Shown here: piece after piece, positions 1 to 3,000 of the stretch | Layout: the number at the start of each line of letters is the position of its first letter | How positions within the stretch are numbered: the first letter of the stretch is position 1 | Source of the DNA: a virus | Taxonomy: Duplodnaviria > Heunggongvirae > Uroviricota > Caudoviricetes | DNA length: 45,487 bases | Reading direction: 5' to 3' (one strand) | Virus record (IMG/VR): IMGVR_UViG_2872185964_000010 | Program-made: the position numbers

Positions 1-3000
1 TTGTCGCTACATGATAAATTATTAATGCATAACTTCGCATTAGCCAATAAAAAAAGCCCTGACTTCATATCTGAACTTCCTCAAATTGAACCTAAACCAT
101 ACAGCAATGGACATAAAATTAAATGGATAAACCACACACTTACTAGCACTGAAGTTACTCCCCCTGATAACCTGATTAAAATATGCATATTGATTGAGTC
201 AGGGGAAATTGCTATAACATCAGTAAGTGATATTGCCAATTTACTTGGAGTTCCTGCTGGCCAATTACTTTATATACTATATCGTAAAAAAGATAATTAT
301 CGTACTTTTGAAATAGAAAAGAAGAATGGTAAAAAAAGAGTCATTAATGCTCCTTGTGGCGGTCTATCGATACTCCAAACGAGACTAAAGCCCGTTCTTG
401 AATATTTCTACAGGCCAAAGAAATCTGCTCATGGTTTTATAAAAGGAAAGAGCATCATTACTAATGCTGGGATGCATATTAAAAAAAATTTTGTCGTAAA
501 CATTGATCTAGAAAACTATTTCGAATCAATAAGTTTTGCTAGGGTTTATGGAATATTTAAAAGTAAACCTTTTAATTTTGCTCATCCTGCAGCTACTGTT
601 TTAGCTCAGTTATGTACTCACAATGGAAAATTACCTCAAGGTGCGTGTACATCGCCAATATTAGCAAATATTGCATCAGCTTCTCTAGACAAACAGCTCA
701 CCCAATTTGCAGGAAGAAAAAAAATATCTTATTCTAGGTATGCTGACGACATAACTTTTTCTTTCAATCAGAGAAATATTGATATAATCAAAAAAAACGA
801 CGACGGAAGTTATAGTCTTAGTGAAACTATAGACAATATTATTTCAAAAAATGGCTTTAAAATAAATTATGATAAATTTAGAGTTCAAACCAGAAATACA
901 AGACAAAGTGTTACTGGCTTAGTGGTTAATGATAAAGTTAACATTAACAGAAGATATATAAGAATTACACGTTCAATGATTCATAGATGGACAGATGATA
1001 AGCTAAAGTATGCACTTCTCTTTGCTACAGAAAAAGGATATCAGGCAAAGGATAATAACCACGCAATTCAAATTTTCCGAAATCATATTTATGGAAGGCT
1101 TAGCTTTATAAAAATGGTTAGAGGGAAAGACTATCCAGGATATTTAAAACTGATGTCATACATGAGTCATAACGATCCATTAAAAACCCAAGAAGGATTG
1201 CGAGCAATGAAAGAAACAGAAAACTTTGATGTTTTTATATGCCATGCAAGCGAAGACAAAAAAGACATTGCAATTCCAATATATGACGAGTTAACTAAAC
1301 TTAAAATTTCAGCCTTCATAGATCATGTTGAGATAAAATGGGGCGACTCCTTAATTGATAAAATAAATGCAGCACTAGTTAAATCAAAATATGTCATCGC
1401 TATTTTATCTGCTAATTCAGTCAATAAGGAATGGCCTCAAAAAGAATTAAGAGCAGTTTTAGCCAGCGAAATATCGAGTGGCGACGTAAAACTTTTGACC
1501 TTATTAAAAAAAGAAGACGAGGAGGTCGTAAACCTATCATTACCTTTACTTAGTGATAAGTTTTATATGGTCTATGATAATAATCCTGAAGTAGTCGCCA
1601 ACAATATTAAATCACTCTTACAACGATAATTCTCTCACAAAAGAAAATGTGCAGATTGATGCGTATTAAGTATTAATCTGCACATACAAAAAAAATAATA
1701 AATAATACATTTTTCATAACTTGTAGGTAACAACAATATATGTCGTAACGAATATTTGGATAACCTCTATACCCTATTAACCAACCAATTAACTCTATGT
1801 AATCTCGCAGCCTCAAAACCCGACTATTGTTCTCTTAACAGTCAGTTCACGTTCCATTCCGGCCTGAGCCCCATAACATGGAAGAAAAAACGCCCCCAGT
1901 CAGTCCAGCTTTCAGACAATCAGTGTGTCACCTGCCGATAATATTCTGAGTAGTTTTTTCAGCCCAGGCCTTTCGGACTTTGTACCACTGATTTTATCTT
2001 CAAAATCAGCGCGCATTCTTCGTAATCCAGCAAACTCTTGTATATGACGTTATTATGGCTACAGCAGTAACGATTATTCCATAACAGGTACTGTAGGCCA
2101 CTCAATATCCGGTGCAGTTGATGTGTCAACACGGTTCAGCAACACCCGATACTTTTTCCAGGCTTCCAGCAACGAGTTTTCTTCCTCCGTTGCGATTTTC
2201 AGATCTGCAGCATCCTGAAGCGGCGCAATATGCTCACTGGCTACCTGCATCAGGCTGTTTTTTGTTTCTTCCGCCTCCCGGATCCGGAACAGTTTTTCTG
2301 CTTCCGTATCCTTCACCCAGGCTGTGCCGTTCCACTTCTGAAACTCCCCTTCCGGAGATAACCAGGTGACATTTTCCGGTAACGGACCGAGTTCAGAAAT
2401 AAATAACGCGTCCCCTGATGCCACGTCATAAACTGTTTTACCCCGATGGTCTTCAACAAGATACCACGATGCATCATCACTGTTGAAAACAGCCACGAAG
2501 CCAGCCGGAATATCTGGCGGTGCAATATCGGTACTGTTTGCTGGCAGACCTGTATGAGGCGGAATATATGCGTCACCTTCACCAATAAATTCATTAGTTC
2601 CGGCCAGCAGATTATAAATTTTTATGGTCCGTGCTTGTTCACTCATTCTGAATGCCATTATGCAAGCCTCACAATATAGTTAAATGCGATGTTTTTGACG
2701 GTGTTTTCCGCGTTACCAGCAGCGTTAACGGTGATGGTGTGTCCATGTGAACCAATCGCAACCGAGTGCGTATGCGCACCAATACCTACAGTATGTGCGT
2801 GTGCACCTGCGCTTGCAGCAGTACCCGATACAGAGTGCGTATGAGCGCCTGCAGAAGAAGTGTTAACACTGTATTTAGAATAATCAGGTGATCCACTTCC
2901 CGGAGCACCACTGGAACCACCTGAAACAAATGTCATCGAATGGGTATGTGCACCGGCTGAAGCAGCCGTACCGCTAACACTATGGGTATGCGCACCAGTG

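Follow-up and report, generated by a model that had tools for sequence, protein, structure and literature searches.

RT-TIR, LOCUS AND QUESTION

The viral record IMGVR_UViG_2872185964_000010 (IMG/VR; Caudoviricetes) opens with a gene that joins a reverse transcriptase (RT) to a TIR domain, and the question raised by this locus is whether the RT-TIR gene is a retron that works with its own upstream noncoding RNA (ncRNA), and how its RT part could then control its TIR part. The whole stretch of DNA analysed, here called the window, is 45,487 nucleotides (nt) long and begins with the first codon of the gene. A complete Escherichia coli genome locus with its flanks (L001) was used for the sequence upstream, and window position 1 corresponds to L001 position 6001. 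We conclude that the locus is almost certainly a type XII retron. Overall, a type XII retron whose TIR domain would be restrained by multicopy single-stranded DNA (msDNA) is likely the best explanation.

Domains and family of the RT-TIR protein

The gene occupies positions 1–1629 of the plus strand as a single open reading frame (ORF) of 542 amino acids (aa), ending in a TAA stop codon at 1627–1629. A first-pass annotation of the window had recognised a retron RT in the first ORF from three motifs, and all three were located there: NIDLENYF at residues 167–174 (nt 499–522), the catalytic YADD motif at residues 247–250 (nt 739–750) and the retron VTG motif at residues 304–306 (nt 910–918). The RT fingers and palm (residues 105–306, nt 313–918) match Pfam RVT_1 with E = 3.3e-19. 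The TIR domain (residues 408–541, nt 1222–1623), which by phmmer against AbTIR is of the AbTIR/TcpB/PdTIR type, matches Pfam TIR_2 over residues 411–507 (E = 2.1e-18) and TIR (E = 4.8e-11); the two domains stand in one ORF, as had been proposed. They are joined by a helical thumb and linker (residues 317–406, nt 949–1218), which lies inside the RT-TIR_XII profile and which is built in the AlphaFold2 (AF2) model from helices 317–345, 352–374, 379–391 and 397–406.

The best match in PADLOC is the RT-TIR_XII model (E = 3.8e-187, 621 bits, residues 70–541), followed by the models of type XI (403 bits) and type I-C (357 bits), to which only the RT part was aligned, and all top PADLOC matches of the protein are retron types. 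Moreover, with 670.8 bits the protein clears the cutoff of 600 bits for the NCBIfam equivalog NF042941 (‘TIR domain-containing anti-phage reverse transcriptase’), which is also the RefSeq name of the identical protein WP_005025120.1; with this score and its type XII family, the ORF is of the known anti-phage RT-TIR kind to which it had been assigned. The alignment to the PADLOC RT-Protease_XI model ends at residues 415–421 and covers profile positions 8–348 of ∼510, and a Pfam scan of the RT-TIR protein gave no protease domain. The type I-C (RT-Toprim) model NF038237 aligns with residues 72–376, i.e. the RT only, and gives 315 bits against a cutoff of 450, with no Toprim C-terminus.

Models of other RT classes did not reach their thresholds: the group II intron RT/maturase model TIGR04416 gave 64 bits (cutoff 300) and the Drt2 model 34.6 bits (cutoff 390). 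The closest PDB entries by sequence are retron RTs, namely Ec67 (E = 5.8e-42) and Ec86 (E = 1.1e-33). A Foldseek search with the AF2 model, whose mean predicted local distance difference test score (pLDDT) is 85, placed retron Eco2 first (E = 2e-27) and then Ec86, while group II RTs (1e-11) and the RTs of defence-associated RT (DRT) systems were much weaker. Thus, on the PADLOC and NCBIfam scores and the Foldseek ranking, the RT is grouped with retrons and not with group II, Abi or DRT enzymes.

In an alignment of 32 homologues (A1), residues Y247, A248, D249 and D250 of the RT and V304, T305 and G306 of its retron motif are invariant, and so are W478, P479 and E482 of the TIR domain, likewise its WGDSL loop (residues 447–451). 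The nearest solved TIR structures found by phmmer (E values 1e-16 to 6e-13) are those of AbTIR (7uwg/8g83, 1e-16), TcpB/BtpA (2e-15) and PdTIR. In the alignment with AbTIR, the RT-TIR segment ‘eWpqkEl’ (W478-P-Q-K-E482) stands against ‘dWtnyEl’, and the WGDSL of the BB-loop stands against VGDSL. E482 (codon at 1444–1446) is therewith the predicted catalytic glutamate of a nicotinamide adenine dinucleotide (NAD+) hydrolase (NADase) site of the form W478-x3-E482. The AbTIR glutamate aligned with it, E208, is the catalytic one. Judged by its sequence, the gene is complete and uninterrupted and keeps its catalytic residues, among them the TIR glutamate that had been named as a point to check.

A conserved ncRNA upstream of the gene

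The msr-msd ncRNA, which had been expected upstream and outside the window, lies at L001 5834–5973, 167–28 nt upstream of window position 1, as indicated by inverted repeats, covariation and a covariance model. In L001, a perfect 10-nt a1/a2 repeat (CGGCTCTGCC/GGCAGAGCCG), with its arms 116 nt apart, ends 30 nt ahead of the window, and the segment folds into a structure closed by the a1/a2 helix (−49 kcal/mol, z −2.5). The layout consists of the a1/a2 helix (10–12 bp), an msr hairpin, a variable msd and a conserved template start, GCGYAARGTR.

For comparison we used RT-TIR loci of gammaproteobacteria (Erwinia, Salmonella, Citrobacter, Yersinia, two Serratia, Vibrio, Pseudoalteromonas and two Pseudomonadaceae), together with two epsilonproteobacterial and five alphaproteobacterial loci and five viral contigs. 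An a1/a2 pair was found at the matching place in 19 of the 20 ncRNA-containing RT-TIR loci, with the arms 80–133 nt apart. The arms vary yet stay complementary, as in Yersinia (GGCTCCACC/GGTGGAGCC), Vibrio (TGGTTTCAACCCAA/TTGGGTTGAAACCA) and Caulobacterales (AGGCATCTCGTCCTTC/GAGGGATGGGATGCCT); for locus L003 (GGGCTCCT/AGGAGCCC) the pairing was made by eye only.

Covariation was determined on a MAFFT alignment of 11 gammaproteobacterial ncRNA sequences. RNAalifold gave an a1/a2 helix of 12 pairs, six of which show compensatory changes, and an msr hairpin of 6 pairs, in which GAGG/CCTC is changed to AAAG/CTTT in Yersinia and Serratia. By pair count, 8 pairs of the ncRNA carry compensatory double changes in total and 93.4% of the cells pair, versus 33–49% with slid partners; the covariation score was matched by none of 500 shuffles. 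A small 3′ hairpin proposed by RNAalifold was left out of the pair count, as it offers no informative variation.

Rfam scans (window 1–3000 and L001 5000–8200, E ≤ 10) gave IS009 and chance matches but no family of retron RNAs, and hence the ncRNA model was built de novo. The resulting covariance model, R1, found matches in 14 of 14 gammaproteobacterial RT-TIR loci, with E values from 1e-34 to 2.5e-21; the L001 ncRNA scored 135 bits (E = 1.9e-33), and one Pseudomonas locus gave E = 0.003. R1 had no match in the window and no significant match in ∼69 loci of other retron types, i.e. the model is specific to RT-TIR loci.

The GCGYAARGTR motif is located just 5′ of a2 and is kept across proteobacterial classes. 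Conserved structure within the msd was considered and rejected, as MAFFT could not align the msd across clades and single-sequence folds disagree inside it, so the conserved structure that we claim comprises the a1/a2 helix and the msr hairpin only. The start codon follows the ncRNA at a distance of no more than ∼30 nt, and RNA and RT-TIR are probably carried by the same transcript. A promoter-like TTTACT-17-TATGAT, 206–178 nt upstream of window position 1, is a positional suggestion only, and the promoter scan performed no better than chance (8 sites vs 10 expected). An ncRNA family that is conserved and covarying across three proteobacterial classes is a small refinement.

Start codon and N-terminal extension

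The first-pass annotation had counted about 50 residues at the N-terminus in excess of Ec86 RT and had left the start of the gene unsettled. The count was borne out by alignment, in which residue 74 of the query meets residue 22 of Ec86 (an extension of 52 residues), and the start can now be assigned. RefSeq places it at the ATG at 25–27 (WP_005025120.1, 534 aa). In the alignment of 32 homologues, however, the eight residues ahead of this Met, MSLHDKLL, are conserved, and the proteins of Citrobacter and Erwinia tasmaniensis have Leu or Phe in its place. At window positions 1–3, E. coli and Erwinia have the codon TTG, whereas Salmonella has GTG and Citrobacter has ATG. Codons 2–3 show synonymous changes among the homologues, which begin MSLH. 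In complete genomes a Shine–Dalgarno sequence, AGGAG, is located 11–7 nt upstream of window position 1, leaving a 6-nt gap to the TTG, and an in-frame TAG is located 12–10 nt upstream. Thus, the conserved MSLHDKLL, the start-codon variants, the synonymous changes, the AGGAG and the in-frame TAG together identify the TTG at 1–3 (plus strand) as the true start, and the RefSeq start is probably too far downstream by 8 codons.

The N-terminal extension (residues 1–70, nt 1–210) is clade-specific. It is kept in Enterobacterales, Vibrio and Pseudoalteromonas and is absent from the Pseudomonas, Halomonas, Nitrosomonas and Sulfurimonas members of the same alignment. The PADLOC and NCBIfam profiles begin at residues 70–74 and leave it uncovered, and it has no Pfam match. 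AF2 predicts a helix (residues 3–14), a β-hairpin (32–43) and a second helix (55–67), with pLDDT 80–88. On the evidence of this conservation, the extension is real coding sequence and not the product of a mis-called start.

Predicted msDNA

Two type XII retrons, Mestre-1156 of Salmonella Muenster and Mestre-1195 of P. aeruginosa, appear in the supplement of an experimental census of retrons (Khan et al.). The DNA made by the RT (RT-DNA) of Mestre-1156 is 76 nt long and begins CACTTTATGC; that of Mestre-1195 begins TACCTTA and reached 0.29x the Eco1 level (Khan et al.). Both RT-DNAs start where the conserved AARGTR motif ends. Since both homologues follow this same rule, the E. coli template is predicted to be L001 5884–5957 (∼74 nt), and the msDNA is predicted to be 74 nt long and to begin 5′-CACTTTGCGC. 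The msr half of the Mestre-1156 ncRNA is almost identical to that of E. coli, TACGGCTCTGCCTTAAAT[C/T]TGTGAGGTTGTTTCGCCTCGAAG, and so is its template-start motif AAAGTGATTGGG, whereas the two RNAs differ in their templated part, the msd. The RNA has thus been validated by experiment in a Salmonella homologue. The Salmonella Poona protein, which is nearly identical to that of Mestre-1156, has only 66% identity to the E. coli protein.

Known systems and a proposed mechanism

By definition, a type XII retron has an RT that carries a TIR_2 domain at its C-terminus, with the ncRNA listed as not determined (Mestre et al. 2020, Table 1). Phage defence by Retron-TIR requires the fused domain (Gao et al. 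2020, as cited by Mestre et al. 2020), and the tested Retron-TIR, which comes from Shigella dysenteriae NCTC2966, protects E. coli K-12 against T5 when carried on pACYC184. The locus studied here is a member of this type (NF042941, RT-TIR_XII), a single protein of RT and C-terminal TIR_2 with the ncRNA immediately upstream. Descriptions of the system, of its RNA and of its DNA product already exist, and the element in the window is an ordinary annotated type XII member.

The closest solved structure, by the sequence and fold scores given above, is that of retron Eco2/Ec67 (type I-C; PDB 9lm3, 9i2f and 9s1f), which is likewise a single-polypeptide fusion of RT and effector with its ncRNA just upstream. 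For regulation, Eco2 offers the best model at hand. Its trimer assembles on a scaffold of branched msDNA and keeps the Toprim nuclease caged until DenB, a phage nuclease, degrades the msDNA and frees it. Eco2/Ec67 differs in its effector, a Toprim RNase cutting tRNA and not a TIR domain, and has ∼25% identity; Ec67 also lacks a 60-residue N-terminal extension, residue 71 of the query being aligned to its residue 12. On the TIR side, the AbTIR, TcpB (BtpA) and PdTIR NADases are aligned over ∼125 residues and share FI(C/S)HASEDK, (W/V)GDSL and WxxxE, but these are stand-alone or coiled-coil virulence factors with no RT fusion and no msDNA control. TIR NADases need self-association to form the active site, as in the SARM1, AbTIR and plant TIR families.

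By analogy with Eco2, we propose with moderate confidence that the gene works as a caged TIR that depletes NAD+. In this model, the RT would copy ∼74 nt of the ncRNA into msDNA, as its homologues suggest, and the msDNA/ncRNA scaffold would assemble an RT-TIR oligomer in which the TIR domains are held apart or occluded, as the Toprim domains are in Eco2. Once a phage activity degrades or modifies the msDNA, or binds to it, the TIR domains would be released, the freed domains would self-associate and hydrolyse NAD+, and the loss of NAD+ would stop both the infected cell and the phage, i.e. abortive infection. No partner gene is conserved across the RT-TIR loci, whose neighbours differ completely among the genera examined.

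Prophage context and cargo cassette

The prophage is lambdoid and is inserted between prfC and yjjG; the window covers it from the first RT-TIR codon as far as the start of the integrase. In this prophage, the retron is flanked by a dinI-like gene and by an invertase remnant that adjoins tfa. The remnant of a Hin/Pin/Gin-type DNA invertase (1814–2044, minus strand), annotated in RefSeq as ‘recombinase family protein, frameshifted’, forms the right edge of the retron cargo and is ∼84% identical to DNA invertase genes of P2-like phages over window 1824–2031. The tail fibre assembly gene tfa (2074–2658, minus strand; Pfam Caudo_TAP, E = 2e-43; RefSeq) follows, and the RT-TIR gene indeed converges on it, as first described, with the invertase remnant between them. 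An 11-bp inverted repeat read from the sequence, ATGTGCAGATT/AATCTGCACAT, with a 17-nt loop (1647–1685), begins 18 nt past the RT-TIR stop codon and has an A-run on the plus strand and a T-run on the minus strand; it may act as a terminator between the two convergent units. The scan for terminators missed this repeat, as its loop exceeds 8 nt. Inside the 3′ half of tfa, positions 2117–2315 (minus strand) strongly match the Rfam family IS009, with 222.8 bits against a gathering score of 117; the match is probably to a family built on conserved tfa sequence rather than to an independent RNA gene.

The view of this prophage end as a cargo site agrees with base composition, distribution and a sister prophage. 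The retron cassette has a GC content of 30–38%, versus ∼50% in the flanks. Of 5,426 complete E. coli genomes, 83 (∼1.5%) have the cassette, and the locus is matched at >99% identity by 77 records of complete E. coli genomes. Homology with other prophage ends that bear dinI breaks ∼20 bp ahead of the dinI stop codon, and only the 83 retron genomes continue. Inserted at the same prfC site, a sister prophage carries no retron and reads dinI-ynaM-ydfK followed by an intact invertase (591 bp). Hence, the 2.2-kb AT-rich retron cassette appears to have replaced ynaM-ydfK and most of the invertase. The exact protein is found in public data, where it bears the NF042941 family name, on 756 contigs in the 534-aa form and on 436 contigs in the 542-aa form.

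In Erwinia, Salmonella, Citrobacter, Yersinia and Serratia rubidaea (L081, L082, L083, L089 and L090), the retron is located directly downstream of a P4-like primase gene with the domains Zn_Ribbon_Prim, Toprim_3 and D5_N. This is a satellite-phage site, another known defence hotspot, and not a lambdoid prophage; the Salmonella and Citrobacter copies (L082 and L083) differ in this respect from the E. coli one. In one E. coli genome (NZ_OY757949.1) the RT-TIR gene is interrupted by IS1A and annotated as distinct proteins, a ‘reverse transcriptase domain’ and a ‘TIR domain’ one, which is a natural knockout.

Elsewhere in the window (4000–25700), late genes, including J and those for tape measure, portal, terminase and capsid, are split into several ORFs, with breaks for example at 6658, 8350, 9290, 10056, 14181, 18665, 21191 and 23457. 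Compared with a 98%-identical prophage (L093), the window has 29 gaps in 21.7 kb; most isolated gaps are the loss of one base from a C or G run of at least 4, and the AT-rich retron gene is unaffected. Prophage decay was therefore rejected as the reading of these split genes, since losses in C/G homopolymers look like sequencing error. Two ORFs on the plus strand with an IS3-type integrase core (rve) and HTH_21 domains are insertion sequences, one at 26113–26952 between the terminase and lysis regions, the other at 41865–42755 near the integrase end. In L093, positions 30805–34578 encode a DUF262 protein, a MAE_28990-family HEPN-like nuclease and a cytosine methyltransferase adjoining the Q antiterminator gene, whereas the window has a different, shorter segment there (29079–30997) with a different Q antiterminator (30227–31021). 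The L093 segment looks like a second defence-type cargo, and the Q-adjacent locus is another variable cargo site in this phage family.

Weighing of the proposal and its alternatives

Several observations speak against a type XII retron with an msDNA-restrained TIR domain. Confidence in the AF2 model is lowest for the TIR domain (pLDDT 56–87), the PDB copy searched contains no type XII structure, and our literature search found no mechanistic paper on type XII. Branch guanosines of retrons usually follow TTA at the end of a1 (TTAG), whereas the sequence immediately 3′ of the a1 helix (L001 5846–5854, 155–147 nt upstream) reads TTAA-ATTTG. Of 20 ncRNAs, 17 have a G directly before the msr hairpin, and Yersinia and Serratia have T there. 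Of the ncRNA hallmarks named in the first-pass annotation, the a1/a2 inverted repeats are present, and for the priming G there is this non-conserved candidate. The RT-DNA of Mestre-1156 was very low, 0.025x the Eco1 level (Khan et al.), and therefore a stoichiometric msDNA cage may fail to hold. The tested Shigella dysenteriae NCTC2966 protein may not be identical to that of the window, and we infer msDNA production, NADase activity, the oligomeric state and the phage trigger at this locus.

With regard to priming, a G was also sought by extending the a1/a2 helix in several registers, and none of them holds across all clades. The branch G may simply shift its position among type XII members. 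It is improbable, in our estimate, that msDNA initiation is non-canonical in type XII and that the 70-residue N-terminal module is a clade-specific binder of ncRNA or msDNA or a sensor of a phage factor; if this were true, the Enterobacterales/Vibrio/Pseudoalteromonas branch would have a regulatory step unlike that of Eco2 or Ec86.

Two alternatives accept an intact gene and differ in how it would act. The TIR domain could mainly be a signal synthase, making a cyclic ADP-ribose isomer (e.g. 2′cADPR) for a separate effector in place of bulk NAD+ depletion. AbTIR cyclises NAD+ to 2′cADPR, and the closest solved TIRs are AbTIR and TcpB/BtpA (E = 1e-16 to 2e-15); there is also a weak match to the Thoeris type III TIR model NF058526 (E = 8.9e-07, far below cutoff). 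However, PADLOC describes RT-TIR as ‘single gene’, no ThsA/SLOG/Macro-type receptor gene adjoins a gene whose neighbours are dinI, the invertase remnant and tfa, the RT-TIR loci of other genera share no partner, and the cassette of the Shigella homologue was reported to defend E. coli K-12 alone, on pACYC184. We thus regard a signal synthase as unlikely. Far less credible still is an RT of the UG/Abi/DRT or group II intron kind that is fused to TIR and works without msDNA. Its support is the group II and Drt2 scores (64 and 35 bits), which are expected for any RT and lie far under the cutoffs, whereas the top PADLOC, PDB sequence and fold matches are all retrons, the retron-specific VTG is invariant, a covarying a1/a2 ncRNA lies upstream, and RT-DNA has been sequenced from two type XII homologues. 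As far as sequence evidence goes, this alternative is refuted.

It might also be asked whether RT-TIR is a decaying or inactive remnant in a defective prophage, given that many late genes of the window are split into several ORFs, that the neighbouring invertase is a frameshifted fragment and that the gene of one E. coli genome carries an IS1 insertion. Against this, the ORF is full length relative to both family profiles with every catalytic residue intact, the identical protein occurs on >1,000 contigs, and the ncRNA is intact in the matching genomes (135 bits). Moreover, nearly all of the late-gene breaks are one-base C5/G5 losses relative to the 98%-identical prophage, the signature of sequencing error. 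A remnant is hence very unlikely, and a type XII retron with an msDNA-restrained TIR domain is the explanation that we prefer.

Implications

The central question on type XII retrons is by which means msDNA controls the TIR domain and what acts as the trigger. For annotation, the tail-fibre end of this prophage is confirmed to hold a defence gene for abortive infection that looks functional. Such a gene bears on the host range of phages and on phage therapy where E. coli has the cassette, as ∼1.5% of the sequenced genomes do.

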